The notes beneath the pieces are model-generated. The model worked only from the letters and a program-made list of their open reading frames with translations, was not told the origin of the DNA and searched no databases. The translations under genes and the position numbers were made by a program. A DNA stretch of 64,000 nt from Escherichia coli (GTDB lineage Bacteria > Pseudomonadota > Gammaproteobacteria > Enterobacterales > Enterobacteriaceae). The first letter of the stretch is position 1; each line of letters opens with the position of its first letter. Of the stretch, positions 15,996-60,145 are shown one piece after another. The stretch lies in NCBI RefSeq assembly GCF_011045215.1, contig NZ_CP049201.1, one strand, 5' to 3'.

Positions 15996-16008
15996 TTGTT
16001 ATTGCATA

Positions 16009-19024: not shown

Positions 19025-19522
19025 TTAATACCCGTCGCGTTTAGTCGTCGCTTCGCTTAATTTTTGTCCACCATATTCTGAAATTATCCCCACGCAGTTA
19101 CCCGCCAGAAAACCCAGTAACGTCACCGTCCAGTTCATCCCGCTGGCAAAAAACAGCGTCATGCCGAGAAAGCCACCGGGAATAAATGACAGTAACCAGA
19201 AACGCCCTTGCCAGACCACCACCGCCGAGAAGGGGGCGGTAGTAATTACGCTCGCCCAGAACCCAGAAATCCCACTCACCGAGGCCAGCCAACCGGCAGC
19301 CAGCGCGGCGAAAAACGCCCACACCATCCCGGAATAATTAACCGCCAGACTTCTGATAAACCCCGATTTACCGCCGCCTGCGGCATAAAAACTGCAAAAG
19401 GCGACGAAGCCAATGGTTCCTAATAATTCCCATCCCTGAGAGAGCCCGACATGTGAAGACACTAACTGCCAAAGCCCTGCACAAATACCGACGGTGACAC
19501 CCGTTGCCGTGAGTCCGTTCAT
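19025..19522 (-). CDS. yahC: Inner-membrane protein (DUF1097)
   Basis: 165-aa hydrophobic ORF upstream of yahB on the same strand. Confidence 0.85.
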   Translation of the reverse strand: MNGLTATGVTVGICAGLWQLVSSHVGLSQGWELLGTIGFVAFCSFYAAGGGKSGFIRSLAVNYSGMVWAFFAALAAGWLASVSGISGFWASVITTAPFSAVVVWQGRFWLLSFIPGGFLGMTLFFASGMNWTVTLLGFLAGNCVGIISEYGGQKLSEATTKRDGY

Positions 19523-19654
19523 CTTGTTCCCCTCTGGTTAGACATGGACGAAAGCTACTCTTACATGTGCAGACTATAGAGAAATAAAACCTGATTGAGT
19601 GAAAGGGTATCGGGTCAAAGAAACAAATATTGCACTACCGCACACTGCGAAAAG

Positions 19655-19675
19655 ATTGTTGAACATCATTCAACA
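19655..19675. promoter_or_regulatory. Perfect dyad TTGTTGAA-N5-TTCAACAA in the yahC/yahD divergent region; candidate LysR-type (YahB) box
   Basis: 8-bp perfect inverted arms with 5-bp spacer, containing a T-N11-A core, about 100 bp upstream of yahD. Binder is inferred. Confidence 0.4.
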
Positions 19676-19779
19676 AAAAGGCGAAATACGGCGAATTAAA
19701 TTTAAGCGGGTTCTTTTATCAGATTATCGTTGCTATTCTCAATTCATCGAAAACAGCCACAAAAACCAGGGGAATGTGA

Positions 19780-20385
19780 ATGAGTATAAAAAATCTACCT
19801 GCCGACTATTTATTGGCTGCACAACAGGGTGATATCGATAAAGTAAAAACCTGCCTTGCGCTGGGTGTCGATATTAATACCTGCGATCGTCAGGGGAAAA
19901 CGGCAATTACGCTGGCAAGTTTATATCAGCAATATGCTTGCGTTCAGGCATTAATTGATGCCGGAGCGGATATTAATAAACAAGATCATACCTGTTTAAA
20001 TCCTTTTTTAATTAGCTGTCTGAACGATGATTTAACGCTACTACGAATTATTTTACCGGCTAAACCCGATCTTAATTGCGTAACCCGTTTTGGCGGTGTC
20101 GGCCTGACGCCTGCCTGTGAAAAAGGCCATTTAAGTATTGTAAAAGAGCTTTTGGCGCATACGGAAATTAACGTTAACCAGACCAACCATGTAGGCTGGA
20201 CGCCGCTACTGGAAGCGATTGTGCTTAATGATGGTGGTATTAAACAACAGGCGATTGTGCAGTTATTGCTGGAACACGGTGCCAGCCCGCATCTGACCGA
20301 TAAATATGGCAAAACGCCACTGGAACTGGCGCGGGAACGGGGCTTTGACGAGATTGCGCAGTTACTGATTGCCGCAGGCGCATAA
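19780..20385 (+). CDS. yahD: Ankyrin-repeat protein
   Basis: 201-aa ORF with tandem ankyrin repeats (GKTAITLASLYQQYACVQALIDAGADIN; GWTPLLEAIVLND...LLLEHGASPH). Confidence 0.9.
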   Translation: MSIKNLPADYLLAAQQGDIDKVKTCLALGVDINTCDRQGKTAITLASLYQQYACVQALIDAGADINKQDHTCLNPFLISCLNDDLTLLRIILPAKPDLNCVTRFGGVGLTPACEKGHLSIVKELLAHTEINVNQTNHVGWTPLLEAIVLNDGGIKQQAIVQLLLEHGASPHLTDKYGKTPLELARERGFDEIAQLLIAAGA

Positions 20386-24254: not shown

Positions 24255-24715
24255 ATGCCGGATGCGGCGTGAACGCCTTATCCGGCCTACAAGTGGCGCA
24301 AGAATTTGTAGGCCTGATAAGCGTAGCGCATCAGGCATTTGTCACCATTGCCTGATGCGGCGTGAACGCCTTATCCGGCCTACGAGTGGCGCGAGAATTT
24401 GTAGGCCTGATAAGCGTAGCGCATCAGGCATTTGTCACCATTGCCGGATGCGGCGTGAACGCCTTATCCGGCCTACGAGTGGCACGAGAATTTGTAGGCC
24501 TGATAAGCGTAGCGCATCAGGCATTTGTCACCATTGCCGGATGCGGCGTGAACGCCTTATCCGGCCTACGAGTGGCACGAGAATTTGTAGGCCTGATAAG
24601 CGTAGCGCATCAGGCATTTGTCACCATTGCCGGATGCGGCGTGAACGCCTTATCCGGCCTACGAGTGGCACGAGAATTTGTAGGCCTGATAAGCGTAGCG
24701 CATCAGGCAATTTGG
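24255..24715. repeat. REP/BIME array, about 5 tandem units of 93-94 bp
   Basis: Unit gccggatgcggcgtgaacgccttatccggcctacgagtggcgcgagaatttgtaggcctgataagcgtagcgcatcaggcatttgtcaccatt recurs starting near 24258, 24351, 24444, 24538 and 24631. Confidence 0.9.
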
Positions 24716-24758
24716 CGTTGGTCACAACCCCATCATCCTCTGTAGCGGACATAACAAA

Positions 24759-25709
24759 ATGAAAGAGCTTGTGGTCGTTGCCATTGGTGGCAACAGCATT
24801 ATCAAAGATAACGCCAGCCAGTCGATTGAGCATCAGGCGGAGGCGGTGAAAGCCGTCGCCGATACGGTGCTGGAAATGCTGGCTTCCGATTACGACATTG
24901 TGCTGACCCACGGTAACGGGCCGCAGGTCGGGCTGGATTTACGCCGTGCGGAGATTGCCCACGAGCGCGAAGGGCTGCCCTTAACGCCGCTGGCGAACTG
25001 TGTGGCAGATACGCAGGGCGGCATCGGCTATCTGATCCAACAGGCGCTGAATAACCGGCTGGCGCGTCACGGCGAGAAGAAAGCCGTCACCGTGGTGACT
25101 CAGGTGGAAGTGGATAAAAACGATCCAGGTTTTGCCCATCCCACCAAGCCCATTGGTGCATTCTTCAGTGAAAGCCAGCGTGACGAATTACAAAAGGCAA
25201 ACCCTGACTGGCGTTTTGTTGAAGATGCCGGACGGGGCTATCGCCGCGTGGTCGCCTCGCCGGAACCGAAACGTATTGTCGAAGCACCCGCCATTAAGGC
25301 GCTGATCCAACAAGGCTTTGTGGTGATTGGCGCGGGCGGCGGCGGAATTCCTGTGGTGCGTACTGACGCGGGAGATTACCAAAGCGTGGACGCGGTTATC
25401 GACAAAGATCTCTCTACCGCGCTACTGGCTCGCGAAATTCACGCCGACATTCTGGTGATCACCACTGGCGTGGAAAAAGTGTGTATTCATTTTGGTAAAC
25501 CGCAGCAACAGGCGCTCGATCGGGTGGATATTGCCACCATGACCCGCTATATGCAGGAAGGGCATTTCCCGCCCGGCAGCATGTTGCCAAAAATCATCGC
25601 CAGCCTGACGTTCCTGGAACAGGGCGGCAAAGAAGTGATTATCACCACGCCGGAATGCCTGCCTGCGGCGCTGCGCGGTGAAACGGGCACCCATATTATT
25701 AAAACGTAA
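24759..25709 (+). CDS. yahI: Carbamate kinase-family protein
   Basis: 316-aa ORF; amino-acid kinase fold motifs (VVVAIGGNSI, THGNGPQVG, VIGAGGGGIPV). Confidence 0.9.
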   Translation: MKELVVVAIGGNSIIKDNASQSIEHQAEAVKAVADTVLEMLASDYDIVLTHGNGPQVGLDLRRAEIAHEREGLPLTPLANCVADTQGGIGYLIQQALNNRLARHGEKKAVTVVTQVEVDKNDPGFAHPTKPIGAFFSESQRDELQKANPDWRFVEDAGRGYRRVVASPEPKRIVEAPAIKALIQQGFVVIGAGGGGIPVVRTDAGDYQSVDAVIDKDLSTALLAREIHADILVITTGVEKVCIHFGKPQQQALDRVDIATMTRYMQEGHFPPGSMLPKIIASLTFLEQGGKEVIITTPECLPAALRGETGTHIIKT

Positions 25710-34194: not shown

Positions 34195-34295
34195 GATGCC
34201 TGATGCGCCGCTGACGCGACTTATCAGGCCTACGGGGTGTACTGAACTGTAGGTCGGATAAGACGCATGGCGTCGCATCCGACAACAATCTCGAC
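34195..34295. repeat. REP pair (BIME) in the prpB-prpC intergenic region
   Basis: gcctgatgcgccgctgacgcgacttatcaggcctac and gtaggtcggataagacgcatggcgtcgcatccgac palindromic units. Confidence 0.8.
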
Positions 34296-37019: not shown

Positions 37020-38906
37020 ATGTCTTTTAGCGAATTTTATCAGCGTTCGATTAACGAACCGGAGCAGTTCTGGGCCGAGCAGGCCCGGCGTATTGACTGG
37101 CAGACGCCCTTTACGCAAACGCTCGATCACAGCAATCCTCCGTTTGCTCGTTGGTTTTGTGAAGGCCGAACCAACTTGTGTCACAACGCTATCGATCGCT
37201 GGCTGGAGAAACAGCCAGAGGCGCTGGCGCTGATTGCCGTCTCTTCGGAAACAGAAGAAGAGCGCACCTTTACCTTTCGTCAGCTGCATGACGAAGTGAA
37301 CGCGGTGGCGTCAATGCTGCGCTCACTGGGCGTGCAGCGTGGCGAACGGGTGCTGGTGTATATGCCGATGATTGCCGAAGCGCATATAACCCTGCTGGCT
37401 TGCGCGCGCATTGGCGCTATTCACTCGGTGGTGTTTGGTGGATTTGCCTCTCATAGCGTGGCGGCGCGAATTGATGATGCTAAACCGGTGCTGATTGTCT
37501 CGGCTGATGCCGGAGCGCGCGGTGGCAAAATCATTCCCTATAAAAAATTGCTCGACGATGCGATAAGTCAGGCGCAGCACCAGCCGCGCCATGTTTTGCT
37601 GGTGGATCGCGGGCTGGCGAAAATGGCGCGCGTCAGCGGGCGGGATGTCGATTTCGCGTCGTTGCGCCATCAACACATCGGCGCGCGGGTACCGGTGGCG
37701 TGGCTGGAATCCAACGAAACCTCCTGCATTCTCTACACCTCCGGCACGACCGGCAAACCTAAAGGCGTGCAGCGCGACGTCGGCGGATATGCGGTGGCGC
37801 TGGCGACCTCGATGGACACCATTTTTGGCGGCAAAGCGGGCGGTGTGTTCTTTTGTGCTTCGGATATCGGCTGGGTGGTGGGGCATTCGTATATCGTCTA
37901 CGCGCCGCTGCTGGCGGGGATGGCGACTATCGTTTACGAAGGATTACCGACCTGGCCGGACTGCGGCGTGTGGTGGAAAATCGTCGAGAAATATCAGGTT
38001 AGCCGGATGTTCTCAGCGCCGACCGCCATTCGCGTGCTGAAAAAATTCCCTACCGCTGAAATTCGCAAACACGATCTCTCGTCGCTGGAAGTACTCTATC
38101 TGGCGGGGGAGCCGCTGGACGAGCCAACCGCCAGTTGGGTAAGCAATACGCTGGATGTGCCGGTTATCGACAACTACTGGCAGACCGAATCCGGCTGGCC
38201 GATTATGGCGATTGCTCGCGGTCTGGACGACAGGCCGACGCGTCTGGGAAGCCCCGGCGTGCCGATGTATGGCTATAACGTGCAGTTGCTTAATGAAGTC
38301 ACCGGCGAACCGTGTGGCGTCAACGAGAAAGGGATGCTGGTGGTGGAAGGGCCGCTGCCGCCGGGCTGTATTCAGACCATCTGGGGCGACGACGACCGCT
38401 TTGTGAAGACTTACTGGTCGCTGTTTTCCCGCCCGGTGTACGCCACCTTTGACTGGGGCATCCGTGACGCTGACGGTTATCACTTTATTCTCGGGCGCAC
38501 TGACGATGTAATTAACGTCGCCGGGCATCGGCTGGGCACGCGCGAGATTGAAGAGAGTATCTCCAGTCATCCGGGCGTTGCCGAAGTGGCGGTGGTTGGG
38601 GTGAAAGATGCGCTGAAAGGGCAGGTGGCGGTGGCGTTTGTCATTCCGAAAGAGAGCGACAGTCTGGAAGACCGCGAGGTGGCGCATTCACAAGAGAACG
38701 CGATTATGGCGCTGGTGGACAGCCAGATTGGCAACTTTGGCCGCCCGGCGCACGTCTGGTTTGTCTCGCAATTGCCAAAAACGCGATCCGGAAAAATGCT
38801 GCGCCGCACGATCCAGGCGATTTGCGAAGGACGCGATCCTGGGGATCTGACGACCATTGATGATCCTGCGTCGTTGGATCAGATCCGCCAGGCGATGGAA
38901 GAGTAA
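37020..38906 (+). CDS. prpE: Propionyl-CoA synthetase (acyl-CoA synthetase, AMP-forming)
   Basis: 628-aa ORF; AMP-binding signature YTSGTTGKPKG. Confidence 0.95.
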   Translation: MSFSEFYQRSINEPEQFWAEQARRIDWQTPFTQTLDHSNPPFARWFCEGRTNLCHNAIDRWLEKQPEALALIAVSSETEEERTFTFRQLHDEVNAVASMLRSLGVQRGERVLVYMPMIAEAHITLLACARIGAIHSVVFGGFASHSVAARIDDAKPVLIVSADAGARGGKIIPYKKLLDDAISQAQHQPRHVLLVDRGLAKMARVSGRDVDFASLRHQHIGARVPVAWLESNETSCILYTSGTTGKPKGVQRDVGGYAVALATSMDTIFGGKAGGVFFCASDIGWVVGHSYIVYAPLLAGMATIVYEGLPTWPDCGVWWKIVEKYQVSRMFSAPTAIRVLKKFPTAEIRKHDLSSLEVLYLAGEPLDEPTASWVSNTLDVPVIDNYWQTESGWPIMAIARGLDDRPTRLGSPGVPMYGYNVQLLNEVTGEPCGVNEKGMLVVEGPLPPGCIQTIWGDDDRFVKTYWSLFSRPVYATFDWGIRDADGYHFILGRTDDVINVAGHRLGTREIEESISSHPGVAEVAVVGVKDALKGQVAVAFVIPKESDSLEDREVAHSQENAIMALVDSQIGNFGRPAHVWFVSQLPKTRSGKMLRRTIQAICEGRDPGDLTTIDDPASLDQIRQAMEE

Positions 38907-38911
38907 GGTAT

Positions 38912-39838
38912 TGTCGGATGCGTCGCGTGGCGCATCCGACAGTTGTGCGCAGATGCCTGATGCGACGCTGGCGCGTCTTATCATGCCTACAGGCCTGAAC
39001 CGTAGGTCGGATAAGGCGCTCGCACCGCATCCGACACCGTGCTCAGTGCCTGATGCGACGCAGGCGCGTCTTATCATACCTACAGGCCTGAACCGTAGGT
39101 CGGATAAGGCGCTCGCGGCGCATCCGACACCATGCGCAGATGCCTGATGCGACGCTGATGCGTCTTATCATGCCTACAGGCCTGAACCGTAGGTCGGATA
39201 AGGCGCTCGCGCCGCATCCGACACCATGCGCAGATGCCTGATGCGACGCTGATGCGTCTTATCATGCCTACAGGCCTGAACCGTAGGTCGGATAAGGCGC
39301 TCGCGCCGCATCCGACACCATGCGCCGATGCCTGATGCGACGCAGGCGCGTCTTATCATGCCTACAGGCCTGAACCGTAGGTCGGATAAGGCGCTCGCAC
39401 CGCATCCGACACCGTGCTCAGTGCCTGATGCGACGCTGATGCGTCTTATCATGCCTACAGGCCTGAACCGTAGGTCGGATAAGGCGCTCGCGCCGCATCC
39501 GACACCATGCGCAGATGCCTGATGCGACGCTGATGCGTCTTATCATGCCTACAGGCCTGAACCGTAGGTCGGATAAGGCGCTCGCGCCGCATCCGACACC
39601 ATGCGCCGATGCCTGATGCGACGCTGGCGCGTCTTATCATGCCTACAGGCCTGAACCGTAGGTCGGATAAGGCGCTCGCGCCGCATCCGACACCGTGCGC
39701 AGATGCCTGATACGACGCAGGCGCGTCTTATCATGCCTACAGGCCTGAACCGTAGGTCGGATAAGGCGCTCGCGCCGCATCCGACACCATGCGCCGATGC
39801 CTGATGCGACGCTTACCGCGTCTTATCATGCCTACCCA
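38912..39838. repeat. Large REP/BIME array: about 10 tandem units of 93-94 bp between prpE and codB
   Basis: Unit gcctgatgcgacgctg[g/a][c/t]gcgtcttatcatgcctacaggcctgaaccgtaggtcggataaggcgctcgcgccgcatccgacacc[a/g]tgcgcagat recurs starting at 38955, 39048, 39142, 39236, 39330, 39423, 39517, 39611, 39705, 39799; each unit holds two opposed REP palindromes. Confidence 0.9.
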
Positions 39839-39905
39839 CTGTTTTTACACCGATAATTTTCCCCCCACCTTTTTGCACTCATTCATATAAAAAATATATT
39901 TCCCC

Positions 39906-39921
39906 ACGAAAACGATTGCTT
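39906..39921. promoter_or_regulatory. Candidate PurR box in the codB promoter region
   Basis: ACGAAAACGATTGCTT resembles the PurR operator core (AAAACG/TTTGC halves) about 70 bp upstream of the codB GTG start. Low-moderate confidence. Confidence 0.35.
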
Positions 39922-39987
39922 TTTATCTTCAGATGAATAGAATGCGGCGGATTTTTTGGGTTTCAAACAGCAAAAAGGGGGAATTTC

Positions 39988-41247
39988 GTGTCGCAAGATA
40001 ACAACTTTAGCCAGGGGCCAGTCCCGCAGTCGGCGCGGAAAGGGGTATTGGCATTGACGTTCGTCATGCTGGGATTAACCTTCTTTTCCGCCAGTATGTG
40101 GACCGGCGGCACTCTCGGAACCGGTCTTAGCTATCATGATTTCTTCCTCGCAGTTCTCATCGGCAACCTTCTCCTCGGTATTTACACTTCATTTCTCGGT
40201 TACATTGGCGCAAAAACCGGCCTGACCACTCATCTTCTTGCTCGCTTCTCGTTTGGTGTTAAAGGCTCATGGCTGCCTTCACTGCTGCTGGGCGGCACCC
40301 AGGTTGGCTGGTTTGGCGTCGGTGTGGCGATGTTTGCTATTCCGGTGGGCAAGGCAACCGGGCTGGATATTAATTTGCTGATTGCCGTTTCCGGTTTACT
40401 GATGACCGTCACCGTCTTCTTTGGCATTTCGGCGCTGACAGTTCTTTCGGTGATTGCGGTTCCGGCGATCGCCTGTCTTGGCGGTTATTCCGTGTGGCTG
40501 GCCGTTAACGGCATGGGCGGCCTGGACGCCTTAAAAGCGGTCGTTCCCGCACAACCATTAGATTTCAATGTCGCGCTGGCGCTGGTTGTGGGGTCATTTA
40601 TCAGTGCGGGTACGCTCACCGCCGACTTTGTCCGGTTTGGTCGCAATGCCAAACTGGCGGTGCTGGTGGCGATGGTGGCCTTTTTCCTCGGCAACTCGTT
40701 GATGTTTATTTTCGGTGCAGCGGGCGCTGCGGCACTGGGGATGGCGGATATCTCTGATGTGATGATTGCTCAGGGCCTGCTGTTGCCTGCGATTGTGGTG
40801 CTGGGGCTAAATATCTGGACCACCAACGATAACGCGCTCTATGCGTCGGGTTTAGGTTTCGCCAACATTACCGGGATGTCGAGCAAAACCCTTTCGGTAA
40901 TCAACGGTATTATCGGTACGGTCTGCGCATTATGGCTGTATAACAATTTTGTCGGCTGGTTGACCTTCCTTTCGGCAGCTATTCCTCCGGTGGGTGGCGT
41001 GATCATTGCCGACTATCTGATGAACCGTCGCCGCTATGAGCACTTTGCGACCACGCGTATGATGAGTATCAATTGGGTGGCGATTCTGGCGGTCGCCTTG
41101 GGGATTGCTGCAGGCCACTGGTTACCGGGAATTGTTCCGGTCAACGCGGTATTAGGTGGCGCGCTGAGCTATCTGATCCTTAACCCGATTTTGAATCGTA
41201 AAACGACAGCAGCAATGACGCATGTGGAGGCTAACAGTGTCGAATAA
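39988..41247 (+). CDS. codB: Cytosine permease (NCS1 family)
   Basis: 419-aa ORF from GTG ([19 protein letters not shown]), AGGGGGAA RBS upstream; 12-TM-like hydrophobic profile. Confidence 0.95.
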
Positions 41248-42520
41248 CGCTTTACAAACAATTATTAACGCCCGGTTACCAGGCGAAGAGGGGCTGTGGC
41301 AGATTCATCTGCAGGACGGAAAAATCAGCGCCATTGATGCGCAATCCGGCGTGATGCCCATAACTGAAAACAGCCTGGATGCCGAACAAGGTTTAGTTAT
41401 ACCGCCGTTTGTGGAGCCACATATTCACCTGGACACCACGCAAACCGCCGGACAACCGAACTGGAATCAGTCCGGCACGCTGTTTGAAGGCATTGAACGC
41501 TGGGCCGAGCGCAAAGCGTTATTAACCCATGACGATGTGAAACAACGCGCATGGCAAACGCTGAAATGGCAGATTGCCAACGGCATTCAGCATGTGCGTA
41601 CCCATGTCGATGTTTCGGATGCAACGCTAACTGCGCTGAAAGCAATGCTGGAAGTGAAGCAGGAAGTCGCGCCGTGGATTGATCTGCAAATCGTCGCCTT
41701 CCCTCAGGAAGGGATTTTGTCGTATCCCAACGGTGAAGCGTTGCTGGAAGAGGCGTTACGCTTAGGGGCAGATGTAGTGGGGGCGATTCCGCATTTTGAA
41801 TTTACCCGTGAATACGGCGTGGAGTCGCTGCATAAAACCTTCGCCCTGGCGCAAAAATACGACCGTCTCATCGACGTTCACTGTGATGAGATCGATGACG
41901 AGCAGTCGCGCTTTGTCGAAACCGTTGCTGCCCTGGCGCACCATGAAGGCATGGGCGCGCGAGTCACCGCCAGCCACACCACGGCAATGCACTCCTATAA
42001 CGGGGCGTATACCTCACGCCTGTTCCGCTTGCTGAAAATGTCCGGTATTAACTTTGTCGCCAATCCGCTGGTCAATATTCATCTGCAAGGACGTTTCGAT
42101 ACGTATCCAAAACGTCGCGGCATCACGCGCGTTAAAGAGATGCTGGAGTCCGGCATTAACGTCTGCTTTGGTCACGATGATGTCTTCGATCCGTGGTATC
42201 CGCTGGGAACGGCGAATATGCTGCAAGTGCTGCATATGGGGCTGCATGTGTGTCAGTTGATGGGTTACGGGCAGATTAACGATGGTCTGAATTTGATCAC
42301 CTACCACAGCGCCAGAACGTTGAATTTGCAGGATTACGGCATTGCCACCGGAAACAGCGCCAACCTGATTATCCTGCCGGCTGAAAATGGATTTGATGCG
42401 CTGCGCCGTCAGGTTCCGGTACGTTATTCGGTACGTGGCGGCAAGGTGATTGCCAGCACACAACCGGCACAAACCACCGTATATCTGGAGCAGCCGGAAG
42501 CCATCGATTACAAACGGTGA
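41237..42520 (+). CDS. codA: Cytosine deaminase (amidohydrolase superfamily)
   Basis: ORF 41222..42520; start at GTG 41237 ([19 protein letters not shown]) with GGAGG 6 nt upstream, 427 aa; overlaps the codB stop by 11 nt; metal-binding HIHLD. Confidence 0.95.
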
Positions 42521-42554
42521 TCGGCTGGGCTGTGTGTTGACAAAGCGAGCGTAG

Positions 42555-42640
42555 TTTATGCCGGATGCGGCGTGAACGCCTTATCCGGCCTACGTAGAGC
42601 ACCGAACTCGTAGGCCTGATAAGCGTAGCGCATCAGGCAA
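42555..42640. repeat. REP pair (BIME) between codA and cynR
   Basis: gccggatgcggcgtgaacgccttatccggcctac ... gtaggcctgataagcgtagcgcatcaggc. Confidence 0.85.
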
Positions 42641-42652
42641 TTGTGTCAGTGG

Positions 42653-43552
42653 CTACCGTGATTCATTCCCGCCAACATCCGCGCATTCCTCCAACGCCAT
42701 GTGCAAAAATGCCTTCGCAGCGGCAGTCTGCCAGCTATTTTTCCGCCGCAACAAAACCGCCGTTCTCTCCAGTAGTGGCGGGGCAAGAGAAATAGCTTTA
42801 AGCCCGTCATGTTGTGTGGCAATCGCTGCTGGTAACAATGTGGAAAGGGAAGTGCGGCGAATCAGCTCCAGAACCGCGCTAATTGAGTTCGCCTCAATTA
42901 CCACCTGTGGATGCAGCCCCGCTTTCTCGCAGTAGTGGTCAATTTGCTCTCTGGTGGCAAATTCCGCGCTGAGCAGTACCAGTTTTTCATCATGCAAGCG
43001 ACTCAACGCCACCTGTTCATGGACTGCCAGCGGATGATGTTGCGCCACGACTAACGCTAAACTTTCTGTCAGTAAAGGAATTGCCTCCAGCTCCGGCGAA
43101 TGCACAGGCGCGAAGGCAATCCCAACGTCCAACTCGTCGCGGCAAAGCATATCCTCGATTTTCTCCTGCGACATTTCCTGTAGCTGGAGCGTGATGCCGG
43201 GATAGCGCGCATAGAAATCCGCCATTAAGGGGCCGATAAAGTAGCTCGTAAAGGTGGGGGTGACGGCGATACGCAGCGATCCTCGCGTCAGATCGGCAAC
43301 ATCATGAATCGCCCGTTTACCCGCCCCCAGTTCCTGTAACGCCCGGCTGGCGTACTGTCGCCAGACTTCTCCTGCATCAGTGAGACGAATCGTTCGCCCG
43401 CTACGGTCAAACAGCGGCACGCCTAAACTCTCCTCTAACTGGCGGATCTGCTGGGAAAGCGCAGGCTGGGAGACGTGCAACGCACTGGCGGCACGGGTGA
43501 AGCTGCCATGTTCAGCCACGGCAAGAAAATAATTGATATGTCGAGAGAGCAT
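42653..43552 (-). CDS. cynR: LysR-family activator of the cyn operon
   Basis: ORF 42653..43576; start at ATG 43552 ([41 protein letters not shown]), 299 aa; divergent from cynT. Confidence 0.95.
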
Positions 43553-43661
43553 TCGCCAACCTATAAGTAAATCCAATAGAACTCATCATAAATGAGACTT
43601 TTACCTTATGACAATCGGCGAGTAGTCTGCCTCTCATTCCAGAGACAGACAGAGGTTAACG

Positions 43662-44321
43662 GTGAAAGAGATTATTGATGGATTCCTTAAATTCCAGCGC
43701 GAGGCATTTCCGAAGCGGGAAGCCTTGTTTAAACAGCTGGCGACACAGCAAAGCCCGCGCACACTTTTTATCTCCTGCTCCGACAGCCGTCTGGTCCCTG
43801 AGCTGGTGACGCAACGTGAGCCTGGCGATCTGTTCGTTATTCGCAATGCGGGCAATATCGTCCCTTCCTACGGGCCGGAACCCGGTGGCGTTTCTGCTTC
43901 GGTGGAGTATGCCGTCGCCGCGCTTCGGGTATCTGACATTGTGATTTGCGGTCATTCCAACTGTGGCGCGATGACCGCCATTGCCAGCTGTCAGTGCATG
44001 GACCATATGCCTGCCGTCTCCCACTGGCTGCGTTATGCCGATTCAGCCCGCGTCGTTAATGAGGCGCGCCCGCATTCCGATTTACCGTCAAAAGCTGCGG
44101 CGATGGTACGTGAAAACGTCATTGCTCAGTTGGCTAATTTGCAAACTCATCCATCGGTGCGCCTGGCGCTCGAAGAGGGGCGGATCGCCCTGCACGGCTG
44201 GGTCTACGACATTGAAAGCGGCAGCATCGCAGCGTTTGACGGCGCAACCCGCCAGTTTGTGCCACTGGCCGCTAATCCTCGCGTTTGTGCCATACCGCTA
44301 CGCCAACCGACCGCAGCGTAA
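43662..44321 (+). CDS. cynT: Beta-class carbonic anhydrase
   Basis: 219-aa ORF from GTG; beta-CA zinc ligand motifs (CSDSR, HSNCG). Confidence 0.95.
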
Positions 44322-44333
44322 CCTTATTTTTAA

Positions 44334-44822
<489 letters not shown>

Positions 44823-44827
44823 CAGCC

Positions 44828-46009
44828 ATGCGCAACCATCAAAAGACGTTCACGATACTGCTGGTTCTGGTGCTGATTGGTCTTAATATGCGACCTCTGC
44901 TCACCTCCGTCGGGCCACTGCTACCGCAATTGCGCCAGGCAAGCGGAATGAGCTTTAGCGTGGCTGCCCGGTTGACCGCTCTGCCGGTGGTTACCATGGG
45001 CGGGCTGGCGCTGGCCGGAAGCTGGCTTCATCAGCATGTCAGCGAACGTCGCAGCGTCGCCATCAGTTTGTTACTGATTGCCGTCGGTGCATTGATGCGT
45101 GAGCTTTACCCCCAAAGTGCGCTGCTGCTTAGCAGCGCACTGCTCGGTGGGGTGGGGATCGGCATCATTCAGGCGGTGATGCCTTCGGTGATTAAACGGC
45201 GGTTTCAGCAGCGCACGCCACTGGTGATGGGGCTGTGGTCCGCGGCTCTGATGGGCGGCGGTGGGCTTGGTGCCGCCCTGACACCCTGGTTAGTTCAACA
45301 TAGCGAAACCTGGTATCAAACACTCGCCTGGTGGGCGCTGCCTGCCGTTGTTGCGCTCTTTGCCTGGTGGTGGTGAAGCGCCCGCGAGGTCGCCTCTTCC
45401 CACAAGACAACAACCACTCCGGTTCGCGTGGTTTTCACTCCTCGCGCGTGGACGCTGGGTGTTTACTTCGGTCTGATTAACGGTGGTTACGCCAGCCTGA
45501 TTGCCTGGTTACCCGCCTTCTATATTGAGATTGGTGCCAGCGCGCAGTACAGCGGTTCCTTGCTGGCATTGATGACGCTTGGGCAAGCCGCAGGAGCTTT
45601 GCTGATGCCTGCTATGGCTCGCCATCAGGATCGGCGCAAACTTTTGCTGTTGGCACTGGCGTTACAACTGGTGGGTTTCTGCGGCTTTATCTGGCTGCCG
45701 CTGCAATTGCCGGTATTGTGGGCGATGGTGTGTGGTTTAGGTCTGGGCGGCGCATTTCCGCTCTGTTTGCTGCTGGCTCTCGATCACTCTGTGCAACCGG
45801 CTATTGCTGGCAAGCTGGTGGCGTTTATGCAGGGGATCGGTTTTATCATCGCCGGGCTTGCCCCGTGGTTTTCTGGCGTGCTGCGTAGTATCAGCGGCAA
45901 TTACCTGATGGACTGGGCGTTTCATGCGCTGTGCGTCGTTGGGCTGATGATTATAACCCTGCGTTTTGCACCAGCACGTTTTCCGCAGCTGTGGGTCAAA
46001 GAGGCATAA
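44828..46009 (+). pseudogene. cynX: MFS cyanate transporter cynX, interrupted by an in-frame TGA at 45374-45376
   Basis: ORFs 44828..45376 (182 aa, ...ALFAWWW*) and 45428..46009 (193 aa) lie in the same frame (offset 600 nt); the 51 nt after the TGA continue in frame as SAREVASSHKTTTTPVRVVFTP, the contiguous CynX sequence. Confidence 0.7.
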
Positions 46010-46019
46010 TGCGACGCTT

Positions 46020-46095
46020 GTTTCTGCGCTTTGTTCACGCCGGATGCGGCCTACGTAGATCACTGAATTTGTAGGCCTGATAAGCGAAGCGTATC
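46020..46095. repeat. REP pair between cynX and lacA
   Basis: gccggatgcggcctacgtagatcactgaatttgtaggcctgataagcgaagcgtatcaggc. Confidence 0.8.
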
Positions 46096-46111
46096 AGGCA
46101 ATTTTTATAAT

Positions 46112-46723
46112 TTAAACTGACGATTCAACTTTGTAATCTCTGAAATAATATTGCTTATCCCGGTCGTTTATTTCGCGAATAACCCGACAAGGAACGCCAG
46201 CCGCCACGACGTTTGGTGGAATGTCTTTTGTGACGATACTACCCGCGCCAATAACAGAATTATCCCCGATGGTGACGCCTGGATTAATAACCACATGACT
46301 TCCGATCCAGACGTTATTGCCAATCGTTATCGGAAAAGAGTACATCTCACCGTTTTTTCTCAATTCATGGTGTACAGGGTGTCCCGTAACGGAAAGAGTA
46401 ACGTTGGGTGCAATCAGTACGTTATCACCGATTGTTACCGTGTAGTCATCGACAATGGTTAAATTGAAATTTGCATAAAAATTGCGGCCTATATGGATGT
46501 TGGAACCGTAAGAGAAATAGACGGGGGGTTCTACCCAGGCGTTTTCCCCTACCGTGGCAAACATTTCTTTAATCAGGCTTTCTCTTTTTTCAACTTCTGA
46601 TGGATGCGAGTGATTAAACTCATACATTAACGTTTTCCCACGAAGTCTTTTTTCCGGTAAGCCTTCGCACATATCGGTAAATAGCTTGCCTGCTTTTATT
46701 CTTTCTGTCATCGACATGTTCAT
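46112..46723 (-). CDS. lacA: Galactoside O-acetyltransferase (hexapeptide-repeat acyltransferase)
   Basis: ORF 46112..46774; start at ATG 46723 (MNMSMTERIKAGKLFTDMCEGLP), 203 aa; the upstream in-frame extension (MRRERLIRPT...) is REP-derived. Confidence 0.95.
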   Translation of the reverse strand: MNMSMTERIKAGKLFTDMCEGLPEKRLRGKTLMYEFNHSHPSEVEKRESLIKEMFATVGENAWVEPPVYFSYGSNIHIGRNFYANFNLTIVDDYTVTIGDNVLIAPNVTLSVTGHPVHHELRKNGEMYSFPITIGNNVWIGSHVVINPGVTIGDNSVIGAGSIVTKDIPPNVVAAGVPCRVIREINDRDKQYYFRDYKVESSV

Positions 46724-46749
46724 TGCGATCATTCCGTTATGATATGTTG

Positions 46750-46779
46750 GTCGGATAAGGCGCTCGCGCCGCATCCGAC
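46750..46779. repeat. Single REP palindrome between lacY and lacA
   Basis: gtcggataaggcgctcgcgccgcatccgac. Confidence 0.8.
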
Positions 46780-46788
46780 ATTGATTGC

Positions 46789-48087
<1,299 letters not shown>

Positions 48088-48093
48088 TTATTA

Positions 48094-51206
<3,113 letters not shown>

Positions 51207-51212
51207 TCACAC

Positions 51213-51242
51213 AACATACGAGTCGGACGCATAAAGTGTAAA
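51213..51242 (-). promoter_or_regulatory. lac promoter (-35 TTTACA, 18-bp spacer, -10 TATGTT)
   Basis: - strand TTTACA at 51242-51237 and TATGTT at 51218-51213. Confidence 0.95.
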
Positions 51243-51254
51243 GCCTGGGGTGCC

Positions 51255-51278
51255 TAATGAGTGAGCTGACTCACATTA
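51255..51278 (-). promoter_or_regulatory. CRP (CAP) binding site of the lac promoter
   Basis: - strand TAATGTGAGTCAGCTCACTCATTA; TGTGA / TCACA half-sites intact. Confidence 0.9.
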
Positions 51279-51290
51279 ATTGCGTTGCGC

Positions 51291-52373
51291 TCACTGCCCG
51301 CTTTCCAGTCGGGAAACTTGTCGTGCCAGCTGCATTAATGAATCGGCCAACGCGCGGGGAGAGGCGGTTTGCGTCTTGGGCGCCAGGGTGGTTTTTCTTT
51401 TCACCAGAGAGACGGGCAAAAGCTGATTGCCCTTCACCGCCAGGCCCTGAGAGAGTTGCAGCAAGCGGTCCACGCTGGTTTGCCCCAGCAGGCGAAAATC
51501 CTGTTTGATGGTGGTTAACGGCGGGATATAACACGAGCTGTCTTCGGTATCGTCGTATCCCACTACCGAGATATCCGCACCAACGCGCAACCCGGACTCG
51601 GTAATGGCGCGCATTGCGCCCAGCGCCATCTGATCGTTGGCAACCAGCATCGCAGTGGGAACGATGCCCTCATTTAGCATTTGCATGGTTTGTTGAAAAC
51701 CGGACATGGCACTCCAGTCGCCCTCCCGTTCCGCTATCGGCTGAATTTGATTGCGAGTGAGATATTTATGCCAGCCCGCCAGACGCAGACGCGCCGAGAC
51801 AGAACTTAATGGGCCCGCTAACAGCGCGATTTGCTGGTGACCCAATGCGACCAGATGCTCCACGCCCAGTCGCGTACCGTCTTCATGGGAGAAAATAATA
51901 CTGTTGATGGGAGTCTGGTCAGAGACATCAAGAAATAACGCCGGAACATTAGCGCAGGCAGCTTCCACAGCAATGGCATCCTGGTCATCCAGCGGATAGT
52001 TAATGATCAGCCCACTGACGCGTTGCGCGAGAAGATTGTGCACCGCCGCTTTACAGGCTTCGACGCCGCTTCGTTCTACCATCGACACCACCACGCTGGC
52101 ACCCAGTTGATCGGCGCGAGATTTAATCGCCGCGACAATTTGCGACGGCGCGTGCAGGGCCAGACTGGAGGTGGCAACGCCAATCAGCAACGACTGTTTC
52201 CCCGCCAGTTGTTGTGCCACGCGGTTGGGAATGTAATTCAGCTCCGCCATCGCCGCTTCCACTTTTTCCCGCGTTTTCGCAGAAACGTGGCTGGCCTGAT
52301 TCACCACGCGGGAAACGGTCTGATAAGAGACACCGGCATACTCTGCGACATCGTATAGCGTTACTGGTTTCAC
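51291..52373 (-). CDS. lacI: Lactose operon repressor
   Basis: ORF 51291..52382; start at GTG 52373 (VKPVTLYDVAEYAGVSYQTVSRVVNQ), 360 aa. Confidence 0.98.
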   Translation of the reverse strand: MKPVTLYDVAEYAGVSYQTVSRVVNQASHVSAKTREKVEAAMAELNYIPNRVAQQLAGKQSLLIGVATSSLALHAPSQIVAAIKSRADQLGASVVVSMVERSGVEACKAAVHNLLAQRVSGLIINYPLDDQDAIAVEAACANVPALFLDVSDQTPINSIIFSHEDGTRLGVEHLVALGHQQIALLAGPLSSVSARLRLAGWHKYLTRNQIQPIAEREGDWSAMSGFQQTMQMLNEGIVPTAMLVANDQMALGAMRAITESGLRVGADISVVGYDDTEDSSCYIPPLTTIKQDFRLLGQTSVDRLLQLSQGLAVKGNQLLPVSLVKRKTTLAPKTQTASPRALADSLMQLARQVSRLESGQ

Positions 52374-52449
52374 ATTCACCACCCTGAATTGACTCTCTTC
52401 CGGGCGCTATCATGCCATACCGCGAAAGGTTTTGCGCCATTCGATGGTG

Positions 52450-53283
52450 TCAACGTAAATGCACGCCGCTTCGCCGTCCGGCTACCAGAATAGCCTGCGA
52501 TTCAACCCCTTCTTCGATCTGTTTTGCTACCCGTTGTAGCGCCGGAAGATGCTTTTCCGCTGCCTGTTCGATGGTCATTGCGCTCGCCATATACACCAGA
52601 TTCAGACAGCCAATCACCCGTTGTTCACTGCGCAGCGGTACGGCGATAGAGGCGATCTTCTCCTCCTGATCCCAGCCGCGGTAGTTCTGTCCGTAACCCT
52701 CTTTGCGCGCGCGCGCCAGAATGGCTTCCAGCTTTAACGGTTCTCGTGCCAGTTGATAGTCATCACCGGGGCGGGAGGCTAACATCTCGATTAATTCCTT
52801 GCGTTCTTGTTCCGGGCAAAAGGCCAGCCAGGTCAGGCCCGAGGCGGTTTTCAGAAGCGGCAAACGTCGCCCGACCATTGCCCGGTGAAAGGATAAGCGG
52901 CTGAAACGGTGGGTGGTTTCGCGTACCACCATTGCATCAACATCCAGCGTAGACACATCTGTCGGCCATACCACTTCGCGCAACAGATCGCCCAGCAGTG
53001 GGGCCGCCAGTGCAGAAATCCACTGTTCGTCACGAAATCCTTCGCTTAATTGCCGCACTTTGATGGTCAGACGAAAACTATCATCGGAGGGACTACGCCG
53101 GACATATCCCTCTTCCTGCAGCGTCTCCAGCAGTCGCCGCACAGTGGTGCGATGCAGGCCGCTGAGTTCCGCCAGCAGCCCGACGCTGGCACCGCCGTCA
53201 AGTTTATTTAACATATTTAATAACATTAGACCGCGGGTTAAGCCGCGCACGGTTTTGTATTCCGTCTGCTCATTGTTCTGCAT
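52450..53283 (-). CDS. mhpR: IclR-family activator of the mhp operon
   Basis: ORF 52450..53397; start placed at ATG 53283 (MQNNEQTEYKTVRGLTRG), 277 aa; an alternative ATG lies at 53295. Confidence 0.9.
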   Translation of the reverse strand: MQNNEQTEYKTVRGLTRGLMLLNMLNKLDGGASVGLLAELSGLHRTTVRRLLETLQEEGYVRRSPSDDSFRLTIKVRQLSEGFRDEQWISALAAPLLGDLLREVVWPTDVSTLDVDAMVVRETTHRFSRLSFHRAMVGRRLPLLKTASGLTWLAFCPEQERKELIEMLASRPGDDYQLAREPLKLEAILARARKEGYGQNYRGWDQEEKIASIAVPLRSEQRVIGCLNLVYMASAMTIEQAAEKHLPALQRVAKQIEEGVESQAILVAGRRSGVHLR

Positions 53284-53325
53284 ATTAATTGACATTTCTA
53301 TAGTTAAAACAACGTTGTGCACCTG

Positions 53326-53342
53326 GTGCACATTCGGGCATG
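53326..53342. promoter_or_regulatory. Dyad TGTGCACC-T-GGTGCACA in the mhpR/mhpA divergent region; candidate MhpR operator
   Basis: Perfect 8-bp inverted arms around a single central base, between the mhpR start and the mhpA start. Assignment to MhpR is from memory of IclR-type palindromic sites. Confidence 0.5.
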
Positions 53343-53473
53343 TTTTGATTGTAGCCGAAAACACCCTTCCTATACTGAGCGCACAATAAAAAATCATTTA
53401 CATGTTTTTAACAAAATAAGTTGCGCTGAACTGTGCGCGCAACGGCATTTTGTCCGAGTCGTGAGGTACTGAA

Positions 53474-55138
53474 ATGGCAATACAACACCCTGACATCCAG
53501 CCTGCTGTTAACCATAGCGTTCAGGTGGCGATCGCTGGTGCCGGTCCGGTCGGGCTGATGATGGCGAACTATCTCGGCCAGATGGGCATTGACGTGCTGG
53601 TGGTGGAGAAACTCGATAAGTTGATCGACTACCCGCGTGCGATTGGTATTGATGACGAGGCGCTGCGCACCATGCAGTCGGTCGGCCTGGTCGATAATGT
53701 TCTGCCGCATACAACGCCGTGGCACGCGATGCGTTTTCTCACCCCGAAGGGCCGCTGTTTTGCTGATATTCAGCCAATGACCGATGAATTTGGCTGGCCG
53801 CGCCGTAACGCCTTTATTCAGCCGCAGGTCGATGCGGTGATGCTGGAAGGGGTGTCGCGTTTTCCGAATGTGCGCTGCTTGTTTTCCCGCGAGCTGGAGG
53901 CCTTCAGTCAGCAAGATGACGAAGTGACCTTGCACCTGAAAACGGCAGAAGGGCAGCGGGAAATAGTCAAATCCCAGTGGCTGGTGGCCTGTGATGGTGG
54001 GGCAAGTTTTGTCCGTCGCACCCTGAATGTGCCGTTTGAAGGTAAAACTGCGCCAAATCAGTGGATTGTGGTAGATATCGCCAACGATCCGTTAAGTACG
54101 CCGCATATCTATTTGTGTTGCGATCCGGTGCGCCCGTATGTTTCTGCCGCGCTACCTCATGCGGTACGTCGCTTTGAATTTATGGTGATGCCAGGAGAAA
54201 CCGAAGAACAGCTGCGTGAGCCGCAAAATATGCGCAAGCTGTTAAGCAAAGTGCTGCCTAATCCGGACAATGTTGAATTGATTCGCCAGCGTGTCTACAC
54301 CCACAACGCGCGACTGGCGCAACGTTTCCGTATTGATCGCGTACTGCTGGCGGGCGATGCCGCGCACATCATGCCGGTATGGCAGGGGCAGGGCTATAAC
54401 AGTGGCATGCGCGACGCCTTTAACCTCGCATGGAAACTGGCGTTGGTTATCCAGGGGAAAGCCCGCGATGCGCTGCTCGATACCTATCAACAAGAACGTC
54501 GCGATCACGCCAAAGCGATGATTGACCTGTCCGTGACGGCGGGCAACGTGCTGGCTCCGCCGAAACGCTGGCAGGGTACGTTACGTGACGGCATTTCCTG
54601 GCTGCTGAATTATCTGCCGCCAGTAAAACGCTACTTCCTCGAAATGCGCTTCAAGCCGATGCCGCAATATTACGGCGGTGCGCTGGTACGTGAGGGCGAA
54701 GCGAAGCACTCTCCGGTCGGCAAGATGTTTATTCAGCCGAAAGTCACGCTGGAAAACGGCGACGTGACGCTACTCGATAACGCGATCGGCGCGAACTTCG
54801 CGGTAATTGGCTGGGGATGCAATCCACTGTGGGGGATGAGCGACGAGCAAATCCAGCAGTGGCGCGCGTTGGGCACACGCTTCATTCAGGTGGTGCCGGA
54901 AGTGCAAATTCATACCGCACAGGATAACCACGACGGCGTACTACGCGTGGGGGATACGCAATGTCGTCTGCGTAGCTGGTTCGCGCAACACAATGCTTCG
55001 CTGGTGGTGATGCGCCCGGATCGCTTTGTTGCCGCCACCGCCATTCCGCAAACCCTGGGCAAGACCCTGAATAAACTGGCGTCGGTGATGACGCTGACCC
55101 GCCCTGATGCCGACGTTTCTGTCGAAAAGGTAGCCTGA
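53474..55138 (+). CDS. mhpA: 3-(3-hydroxyphenyl)propionate hydroxylase (FAD monooxygenase)
   Basis: 554-aa ORF; FAD fold [19 protein letters not shown]. Confidence 0.95.
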
Positions 55139-55139
55139 T

Positions 55140-56084
55140 ATGCACGCTTATCTTCATTGTCTTTCCCACTCGCCGCTGGTGGGGTATGTCGACCCAGCAC
55201 AAGAGGTACTCGATGAGGTCAATGGCGTGATTGCCAGCGCCCGCGAGCGTATTGCGGCTTTCTCCCCTGAACTGGTGGTGCTGTTTGCGCCAGATCACTA
55301 CAACGGCTTTTTCTATGACGTGATGCCACCGTTCTGTTTAGGCGTTGGAGCGACGGCAATTGGTGATTTCGGCAGTGCGGCAGGAGAGCTGCCCGTGCCT
55401 GTGGAGCTGGCGGAGGCCTGTGCGCATGCCGTCATGAAGAGCGGGATCGATCTTGCCGTTTCTTATTGTATGCAGGTGGACCACGGGTTCGCCCAGCCGC
55501 TGGAGTTCCTGCTCGGTGGGCTGGATAAGGTGCCAGTTCTGCCTGTGTTCATCAACGGTGTCGCCACGCCGCTGCCCGGTTTCCAGCGTACCCGCATGTT
55601 GGGTGAAGCCATTGGACGTTTCACCAGCACTCTCAATAAACGCGTGCTGTTCCTGGGTTCCGGTGGGCTTTCCCATCAGCCGCCGGTGCCCGAACTGGCG
55701 AAAGCCGATGCCCATATGCGCGACCGCCTGTTGGGGAGCGGGAAAGATTTACCCGCCAGTGAGCGCGAATTGCGTCAGCAACGGGTGATTAGCGCCGCTG
55801 AGAAGTTTGTTGAGGATCAGAGAACTCTGCATCCGCTCAACCCGATTTGGGATAACCAGTTCATGACTTTGCTGGAGCAGGGACGCATACAGGAACTGGA
55901 TGCCGTCAGTAACGAAGAGCTTTCCGCCATTGCCGGAAAGTCGACACATGAAATCAAAACCTGGGTCGCCGCTTTTGCCGCTATTTCTGCATTTGGCAAC
56001 TGGCGTAGCGAAGGGCGTTATTACCGCCCAATCCCGGAGTGGATTGCCGGATTTGGCTCGTTAAGCGCCAGAACAGAGAACTGA
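55140..56084 (+). CDS. mhpB: 2,3-dihydroxyphenylpropionate 1,2-dioxygenase (extradiol)
   Basis: 314-aa ORF; starts 1 nt after the mhpA stop. Confidence 0.95.
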
Positions 56085-56101
56085 ATATGCAGGAGAAGAT
56101 G

Positions 56102-56968
56102 ATGAGTTATCAGCCACAAACCGAAGCCGCCACCAGCCGTTTTCTGAATGTAGAAGAAGCGGGTAAAACGCTGCGCATCCATTTTAATGACTGCGGACAA
56201 GGCGACGAAACCGTTGTCCTGCTGCATGGTTCCGGCCCGGGTGCTACTGGCTGGGCGAACTTCAGCCGCAATATCGATCCGCTGGTAGAGGCGGGCTATC
56301 GGGTGATCCTGCTGGATTGTCCGGGTTGGGGCAAGAGCGATTCGATCGTTAATAGTGGTTCGCGATCGGATCTTAATGCACGAATCCTGAAAAGCGTGGT
56401 GGATCAACTGGAAATCGCCAAAATCCACCTGCTGGGCAACTCGATGGGTGGTCATAGTTCTGTGGCGTTCACCCTTAACTGGCCGGAGCGCGTCGGCAAA
56501 CTGGTGCTGATGGGCGGCGGTACGGGCGGCATGAGTTTGTTTACGCCGATGCCAACCGAAGGTATTAAGCGACTGAATCAGCTTTATCGTCAGCCGACTA
56601 TCGAAAACCTGAAGCTGATGATGGATATCTTCGTTTTTGATACCAGCGATTTGACCGACGCCCTGTTTGAAGCGCGCCTGAATAATATGCTGTCGCGCCG
56701 CGATCACCTGGAAAATTTCGTTAAGAGCCTGGAAACTAATCCGAAACAGTTCCCGGATTTTGGCCCACGTCTGGCGGAAATCAAAGCGCAAACCCTGATT
56801 GTCTGGGGGCGCAACGACCGCTTTGTGCCGATGGATGCGGGTCTGCGTCTGCTGTCCGGCATTGCCGGTTCTGAACTGCATATCTTCCGCGACTGTGGTC
56901 ACTGGGCGCAGTGGGAACATGCCGACGCTTTCAATCAACTGGTGCTGAATTTCCTCGCACGTGCTTAA
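56102..56968 (+). CDS. mhpC: 2-hydroxy-6-ketonona-2,4-dienedioate hydrolase (alpha/beta hydrolase)
   Basis: ORF 56039..56968; start at ATG 56102 ([15 protein letters not shown]), 288 aa; GNSMGG nucleophile elbow. ATG 56087 or 56099 are alternative starts. Confidence 0.9.
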
Positions 56969-58730
<1,762 letters not shown>

Positions 58731-58734
<4 letters not shown>

Positions 58735-59744
58735 ACGGTAAAAAACTTTATATCTCGGACGTCACGTTGCGTGACGGTATGCACGCCATTCGTCATCAGT
58801 ATTCGCTGGAAAACGTTCGCCAGATTGCCAAAGCACTGGACGATGCCCGCGTGGATTCGATTGAAGTGGCCCACGGCGACGGTTTGCAGGGTTCCAGCTT
58901 TAACTATGGTTTCGGCGCACATAGCGACCTTGAATGGATTGAAGCAGCGGCGGATGTGGTGAAGCACGCCAAAATCGCGACGTTGTTGCTGCCAGGAATC
59001 GGCACTATTCACGATCTGAAAAATGCCTGGCAGGCTGGCGCGCGGGTGGTTCGTGTGGCAACGCACTGTACCGAAGCTGATGTTTCCGCCCAGCATATTC
59101 AGTATGCCCGCGAGCTCGGAATGGACACCGTTGGTTTTCTGATGATGAGCCATATGACCACGCCGGAGAATCTCGCCAAGCAGGCAAAGCTGATGGAAGG
59201 CTACGGTGCGACCTGCATTTATGTGGTGGATTCTGGCGGTGCGATGAACATGAGCGATATCCGTGACCGTTTCCGCGCCCTGAAAGCAGTGCTGAAACCA
59301 GAAACGCAAACCGGCATGCACGCTCACCATAACCTGAGTCTTGGCGTGGCGAACTCTATCGCGGCGGTGGAAGAGGGCTGCGACCGAATCGACGCCAGCC
59401 TCGCGGGAATGGGAGCGGGCGCAGGTAACGCGCCGCTGGAAGTATTTATTGCCGCCGCGGATAAACTGGGTTGGCAGCATGGGGCCGATCTCTATGCGTT
59501 AATGGATGCCGCTGACGACCTGGTGCGTCCGTTGCAGGATCGACCGGTACGAGTCGATCGCGAAACGCTGGCGCTGGGATACGCTGGTGTTTACTCCAGC
59601 TTCCTGCGTCACTGTGAAACGGCGGCGGCGCGTTATGGCTTAAGCGCGGTGGATATTCTCGTTGAGCTGGGCAAACGCCGGATGGTTGGCGGCCAGGAGG
59701 ATATGATCGTCGACGTGGCGCTGGATCTGCGCAACAACAAATAA
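58731..59744 (+). CDS. mhpE: 4-hydroxy-2-oxovalerate aldolase
   Basis: 337-aa ORF; ATGA overlap with mhpF. Confidence 0.95.

Positions 59745-59784: not shown

Positions 59785-60145
<361 letters not shown>

Follow-up and report, generated by a model that had tools for sequence, protein, structure and literature searches.

The intergenic region between prpE and codB holds a tandem array of twenty palindromic units that is, judged by its sequence, an ordinary but unusually long BIME-2 of alternating, opposed Z2 and Y REPs. It lies in a stretch of 64,000 nucleotides of Escherichia coli DNA, which was analysed as a whole and is referred to here as the window. What sets this array apart is only quantitative: in size the allele lies at the very top of the range. 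Its BIME-2 kind, its copy-number polymorphism, the presence of naRNA4-like units and the use of such elements as IS621 targets are already known. Taken jointly, we put the probability at about 85% that the array is a BIME-2 in the 3' untranslated region of prpBCDE, upstream of the codBA promoter, with the origin and function proposed below.

Location and extent of the array

The flanking genes follow each other in the order prpD, prpE, codB, codA, all on the plus strand, and the array is wholly extragenic between the stop of prpE (38906) and the start of codB (39988). prpE, encoding propionate--CoA ligase (37020..38906, plus strand), is recognized over its full length by TIGR02316 with 1301.7 bits and ends in a TAA stop codon at 38904-38906. 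codB, encoding cytosine permease (39988..41247, plus strand; NF008241, 695.1 bits), begins with a GTG at 39988. The gap between the two genes measures 1081 bp in the window versus 329 bp in K-12 MG1655.

The array, at 38910-39835, is made of three parts, all described here for the plus strand. Sequence and folding delimit a leading REP-like perfect palindrome of 35 nt (GTCGGATGCG...CGCATCCGAC; 38910..38944). Nine full BIME-2 units of 93 or 94 bp follow (38954..39797), as defined by a unit table, a mismatch matrix and a comparison with canonical REP sequences. The last part is a terminal Z2 REP with the variant loop TTACC (39798..39835), whose CTAC end is the end of the array. The nine in-register 94-nt copies at 38954..39797 are spaced by 93 or 94 bp and share 93-100% identity with the reference copy, and the 3' half of the Z2 REP occurs a tenth time at 39817-39835. 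Tandem Repeats Finder describes the same structure as a single array at 38931..39835 with a period of 94, 9.6 copies, 94% matches and a score of 1575. An 18-nt Z2 3' arm carrying the CTAC foot is found ten times in the array, compared to 0.00 times expected from 100 shuffles.

The original prediction had placed about ten near-identical units at 38912-39838. These limits are right to within 3 nt, the array running from 38910-38913, where the leading palindrome begins, to 39835, the end of the final CTAC, and the number is a fair description, since the nine full units and the two terminal REPs make up ten Y'-Z2 pairs. The array is indeed the largest repeat of the window, as had been stated, with 905 bp versus 459 bp (24256..24714) and 345 bp (59785..60129) for two further arrays; a search for direct or inverted repeats of at least 150 nt elsewhere in the window found none.

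The G+C content of the array is 61.7% versus 36.8% in the adjoining 39836-39987, and its C/G ratio of 1.11 amounts to no strong excess of C over G. The A+T-rich stretch of 152 bp between the array and codB contains a sigma-70-like match, TTTGCA-17-TATATT (39872..39900, plus strand), a match to the consensus only, which is a candidate for the codBA promoter.

Anatomy and folding of the repeat unit

Each unit opens with a forward Z2 REP; the inverted Y REP is joined to it tail-to-tail by 11 nt (AGGCCTGAACC), and a head-to-head linker of 13 nt, reading ACCATGCGCAGAT or a variant of it, closes the unit. The earlier view that every unit carries two opposed REPs is thus borne out by sequence, folding and Rfam alike. 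When compared with the canonical REP sequences given in the Methods of PMC11208160, the Z2 part on the plus strand is identical at 35 of 36 positions and the Y part on the minus strand at 30 of 35, with differences in Y that include three loop changes and one compensatory exchange of a C:G for a T:A stem pair. The canonical Z1 sequence does not match the REPs of the array (15/30).

Every Z2 is followed by ...GCCTAC and every inverted Y is preceded by GTAGG, and the CTAC/GTAG foot is present in the internal units. According to the folds and the pair table, the internal stem mismatch is likewise found in both the Z2 and the Y of these units. The Z2 REPs of the array carry in addition a G-to-T change (ATCATGCC), which adds a C.U mismatch close to the base of the stem and may weaken the Z2 hairpins. 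The leading palindrome has neither the internal mismatch of canonical Y nor the GTAG foot; it folds into a 15-bp stem with a centroid energy of -25.7 kcal/mol (z = -3.4) and begins 3-6 nt past the stop codon of prpE, its G+C-rich part starting at 6 nt.

As RNA, a Y'-Z2 pair folds into two local hairpins with -33.6 kcal/mol. Neighbouring REPs are also complementary to one another, and the alternative, a single long REPIN-like hairpin, reaches -36.6 to -42.1 kcal/mol. The 38 distinct internal Y'-Z2 pairs taken from 12 alleles have 94.5% of their stem cells paired, and variable columns are rarer in stems (9/48) than outside them (15/28; Fisher p = 0.002). Gene conversion among units could give the same pattern, so selection on the stems need not follow from it. 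No informative covariation for an RNA structure was found among the units compared; changes in the stems are mostly single-sided, which would count neither for nor against a selected structure.

Assignment to the BIME-2 family

BIME-2 elements consist of z2 and y REPs in alternating inverse orientation, arranged in tandem with short linkers and in copy numbers that vary between strains (PMC3333891). Within the nomenclature of Gilson, Bachellier and Hofnung (PMC3333891), the array has in common with this family the alternating inverse y and z2 units, the short linkers, the multiple tandem copies with good conservation inside one locus, the strain-variable number and the intergenic location at a transcription unit's 3' end. 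It departs from the family in some details. It comprises 20 palindromic units, compared to the 1-12 reported for REP clusters in K-12 MG1655, its Z2 units read ATCATGCC instead of ATCAGGCC, its Y units have GTCGGAT/ATCCGAC instead of GCCGGAT/ATCCGGC, and its first unit is perfectly palindromic and lacks the GTAG foot. For the linkers, the comparison with the family covered length, at 11 nt tail-to-tail and 13 nt head-to-head; BIME-2 is further marked by an S linker between REP and iREP with s, l or r motifs at its flanks, and BIME-1 by a long L linker or an IHF site.

Several other identities were considered and rejected. A BIME-1 is not indicated, as the array contains no IHF consensus (WATCAANNNNTTR). 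No terminator-like site was found on the plus strand of 38700-40100, which speaks against an intrinsic terminator; a run of five T at 39845-39849 starts about 12 nt past the point where pairing ends in the terminal Z2 stem. The array is no CRISPR either, because the entire 94-bp period is repeated and the stretches between the palindromes are conserved, leaving no unique spacers.

With REPINs, which are hairpin-forming REP doublets, and with substrates of RAYT/TnpA(REP), the array shares adjacent, complementary inverted REPs that are able to fold as a long hairpin. Binding by TnpA(REP) requires the GTAG/CTAC foot and the mismatch in the stem; the internal units have both, and the array is a candidate substrate of RAYT/TnpA(REP). 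To our knowledge, no RAYT gene is to be expected in the 64-kb window.

The Rfam family RF02564 (naRNA4) matches all ten head-to-head Y'-linker-Z2 pairs (38912..39832) on the plus strand, which is the sense of prpE and codB. Eight of them reach the gathering score of 59.5 bits, with 61.6-71.0 bits, and the remaining two score 59.2 and 51.4 bits. One could conclude from this that the array is chiefly a source of naRNA4-like two-hairpin RNAs, up to ten of them, which would be released from prp read-through transcripts, bind HU, bridge cruciform DNA and condense the chromosome, as put forward in the original model of nucleoid condensation by naRNA4 and HU (PMC4550694). The orientation with respect to the upstream gene, which is the same as in REP325, the element from which RF02564 was built, fits such a role, yet we give it hardly any credence. 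Deletion or overexpression of REP325/naRNA4 leaves the volume of the nucleoid unchanged, and neither a stable complex of HU, cruciform and naRNA4 nor HU-dependent contacts between REPs were observed (bioRxiv 10.64898/2026.03.23.713779). RF02564 moreover matches any Y-Z2 pair and assigns higher scores to both other arrays of the window, so that the model detects generic Y-Z pairs and not a specific gene. Most genomes also have only one or two Y'-Z2 pairs at the locus.

Other REP elements and the reading frames of the arrays

The window contains further REP elements. A second BIME array is located between yahG and yahI (24256-24714) and is built from Y and inverted Z1-like REPs with a period of 93 and 4.9 copies. 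A third one, between mhpE and mhpT (59785-60129), is a BIME-2 of Y and Z2 with a period of 101 and 3.4 copies. It yields the best naRNA4 scores of the window (83.8-88 bits, minus strand), and its matches are antisense to the flanking mhp genes as judged by the annotation of a collinear genome; the scores of the prpE-codB array lie lower, at 61.6-71 bits versus 84-88 bits. Isolated REPs are found at 62118-62135, 34223-34233, 42610-42620 and 46071-46081, of which the one at 62118 has the ATCATGCCTAC variant in common with the prpE-codB array.

Peptides beginning with MPDAT or MRRERLIRPT had been dismissed as translations of the prpE-codB repeat. They are present as open reading frames of 26-92 amino acids on both strands, which begin anew from unit to unit, as a period of 94 bp is not divisible by 3 and shifts the frame each time. 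A Pfam search with these frames (E <= 1) gave no match, and none of the 13 complete genomes inspected has an annotated coding sequence within the array, both of which agree with that dismissal. These frames should not be annotated as genes. In the yahG-yahI array a 166-residue frame with repeated MRRERLIRPTSGARICRPDKRSASGICHHC (24262..24762, plus strand) spans the whole array, since 93 bp correspond to 31 codons and the frame is kept. At the equivalent position of PapM-32-1, as extrapolated from coordinates under the assumption of collinearity, PGAP annotates a 477-bp 'hypothetical protein', WP_164476703.1, which is very probably a spurious repeat translation.

Allele sizes across Escherichia coli

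How common is an array of this size? The 5,426 complete E. coli genomes were queried with the unique flanks only, and the resulting ranking was sampled evenly twice to obtain 118 genomes. The insert, measured from the stop codon of prpE to a conserved CCACTGTTTTT, falls into discrete length classes. About 84 bp and no full unit are found in 35 genomes, about 177 bp and one unit in 48 genomes, K-12 among them, and about 272 bp and two units in 13. Longer alleles are represented by about 553 bp with five units (2 genomes), 741-748 bp with seven units (11 genomes, O157:H7 among them) and 833 bp with eight units (1 genome); the inserts of the remaining eight genomes, with 0-2 units, bear IS621. 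Hence approximately 30% of the sampled genomes have no full unit and approximately 41% have one, and 96 of the 110 IS-free alleles have at most two.

The insert of the window is 929 bp long and has nine units, a number that none of the 118 sampled genomes reaches. Outside this sample, a search with the full locus showed nine units only in PapM-32-1, with an insert of 930 bp. Its array is collinear with that of the window, 96.3% identical and equal in length to within 1 bp, and its flanks share 97.8% identity on the prpE side and 99.2% on the codB side. The allele of K-12 MG1655 at the same locus has the leading palindrome, the unit type and the terminal Z2 REP in common with the window, but contains one full unit (177-bp insert, 3 REPs) versus nine (929-bp insert, 20 REPs). 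An O55:H7 allele has five units. Unit-by-unit listings show that the unit variants are shuffled between strains, and in every allele inspected at least one Y'-Z2 pair directly follows prpE.

A comparison of this kind, which had been proposed together with the original prediction, thus returns alleles of 0, 1, 2, 5, 7, 8 and 9 units. The accompanying idea of a copy-number hotspot holds between lineages, where complete genomes range from zero to nine units, but does not extend to hypervariability: among the full-locus matches listed, 52 genomes of the O157:H7 lineage all have the same span of seven units. The array changes between lineages, in whole 94-bp units or blocks of units, and is stable within a clone.

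Events at the borders and inside of the cluster were also observed. The eight-unit allele of K12a (NZ_OZ259269.1) has its right edge deleted: its final, incomplete unit runs directly into GGATAATTTTTCC, and the conserved CCACTGTTTTTACACC is missing. Sequence upstream of the candidate codB promoter can accordingly be removed by recombination or deletion at the border of the array. IS621, an element with a bridge-RNA recombinase, resides inside the prpE-codB REP cluster of EC554 (NZ_CP159917.1), H72, H90, H91, H163, H167, H169 and H171. In EC554 the insertion point is exactly ...TTATCAGGCCT^; this is the natural target described in the literature, ATCAGGCCTAC, whose core is CT. Exact IS621 target sites number 11 in the window, none of them in the prpE-codB array, since each of the ten Z2 REPs there reads either ATCATGCCTAC or ATCATACCTAC.

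The window has no identical counterpart among the 5,426 complete RefSeq E. coli genomes. The best match over the locus is 97.5%, over the flanks alone 98.8-99.0% and over other 20-kb parts 99.0-99.2%, with PapM-32-1 (99.2%) and A16 (99.1%) closest at 1-20000 and OkiPb01695 (99.0%) at 42000-62000. The nearest relatives, which include PapM-32-1 from a baboon, A16 from an otter, ET350 from a frog and OkiPb01695 from cattle, vary by region, and this suggests a mosaic or a rarely sampled lineage.

Growth of the array and confidence in its length

Eleven columns vary among the nine units, which makes seven of them distinguishable. Units 3 and 4 recur unchanged as units 6 and 7, and the longest exact internal repeat extends over 203 bp (39141-39343 = 39422-39624) at an offset of 281 bp, or three units. 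This higher-order structure (39141..39624, plus strand) points to a duplication or conversion of three units. Several further internal repeats measure 90-113 bp, and the periods 281 and 375 score higher than the period 94 in Tandem Repeats Finder. At an offset of 375 bp there is a near-repeat in which unit 1 resembles unit 5. From its sequence, the array appears to have grown by multi-unit duplication or conversion besides single-unit steps.

Such exact copies are also what makes an assembly error thinkable, in which identical units were expanded or collapsed and the true array is shorter or longer. A certain risk at the array, named already in the original prediction, is plausible given the 203-bp repeat and the several shorter ones. 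With reads of less than about 210 bp the three central units have no unique placement, and the exact allele is without an independent copy, since identity to the window is found in no complete RefSeq genome. That the unit count as such is an artefact is nevertheless highly improbable. The 11 variable columns tell seven of nine units apart, and independent complete genomes carry collinear arrays of seven (O157:H7, 52 genomes), eight (K12a) and nine units (PapM-32-1). On these grounds an expansion artefact is unlikely, and an error of three units is possible.

If the nine units are taken as real, the length of the array would have arisen from unequal recombination or replication slippage between units, possibly also from RAYT activity. 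An origin by recombination or slippage is supported by the exact three-unit duplication of 203 bp together with the strain-specific order of the unit variants. The gain and loss of whole units fits unequal recombination, replication slippage or an amplification mediated by TnpA(REP); in vitro this enzyme acts on BIMEs by cleavage and recombination, and a model of BIME amplification has been proposed (PMC3333891).

These same observations feed the view that the array is neutral, selfish or slippage-prone DNA, multiplied by a REP-associated transposase or by recombination, with no selected role beyond that of a single REP. Copy number varies from 0 to 9 without obvious constraint and short alleles dominate, long alleles are restricted to few lineages, the order of units is scrambled between strains, and IS621 insertions are tolerated in 8 of 118 genomes; the in vitro activity of TnpA(REP) and the amplification model add to this. 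At odds with it is the retention of at least one Y'-Z2 pair right after prpE in every inspected allele, and to a lesser degree the conservation of stems relative to loops and linkers, a pattern that gene conversion without selection could also create. As a full account we regard complete neutrality as a serious contender that is still rather doubtful. It agrees with our preferred explanation on the extra units and differs only on the function of the basal element. The large share of sampled genomes with no full unit or a single one indicates that the long array is dispensable, and the extra units are probably close to neutral.

Proposed role at the end of the prp operon

What could the basal element do? 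The best available analogy is REP325/naRNA4 of K-12, a BIME-2 of 12 hairpins between yjdM and yjdN. It likewise consists of a gene, a (Y-linker-Z2)n array and a further gene on the same strand, with the same orientation of the RNA unit to the upstream gene and the same 13-nt head-to-head linker. It differs from the prpE-codB array in its locus, in its linker sequences and in having six pairs versus ten. REP325 acts as a partial Rho-dependent terminator, stabilizes the upstream mRNA and yields a ladder of truncated transcripts, and the same study stresses that REP effects depend on context (bioRxiv 10.64898/2026.03.23.713779).

By analogy, when prp is transcribed the hairpins of the array would impede 3'-5' exonucleases and thereby stabilize the prp mRNA. 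They would also attenuate transcription in steps, in part through Rho, so that less of it passes from the propionate-induced prp operon into codBA. A partial attenuation of this kind ahead of codBA, combined with protection of the prp mRNA 3' end, is, on this comparison, likely, and the insulation of prpBCDE from codBA that had been suggested for the array would be a reasonable analogy to REP325.

The position of the first hairpin, 3-6 nt past the stop codon, may further disturb the termination of prpE translation. Liang, Rudd and Deutscher reportedly found in 2015 that translation is affected when a REP lies no more than about 15 nt from a stop codon. In general terms, a stalling of terminating ribosomes at REPs near stop codons has been described (PMC12306157). 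At the level of DNA, gyrase cleavage is enriched in BIME-2 elements, in y more than in z2 (PMC6379681), and by the same reasoning the Y REPs of the array would be probable sites of gyrase binding and cleavage.

One may go further and regard the array as a 20-hairpin, lineage-specific regulatory allele, in which the number of units sets, step by step, the leakage from prp into codBA and the survival of the prp mRNA, or as a gyrase site of exceptional strength that does not depend on transcription and marks a topological boundary. We consider either of these extensions improbable. A literature search for prpE and codB together with REP returned nothing specific to the locus, as judged from titles and abstracts.

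Significance of the locus

The prpE-codB array is not a new kind of element. Its locus constitutes a natural VNTR with steps of 94 bp that can mislead short-read assembly. If the reading as a regulatory allele were true, the relatives of the window's strain, wild-animal isolates like PapM-32-1, and the seven-unit O157:H7 lineage would differ from K-12 in how the expression of propionate and pyrimidine-salvage genes is coupled. The series of alleles with 0, 1, 2, 5, 7, 8 and 9 units, all bordered by one and the same gene pair, offers a natural titration for the recent claim that REP arrays are length-dependent attenuators and mRNA stabilizers.
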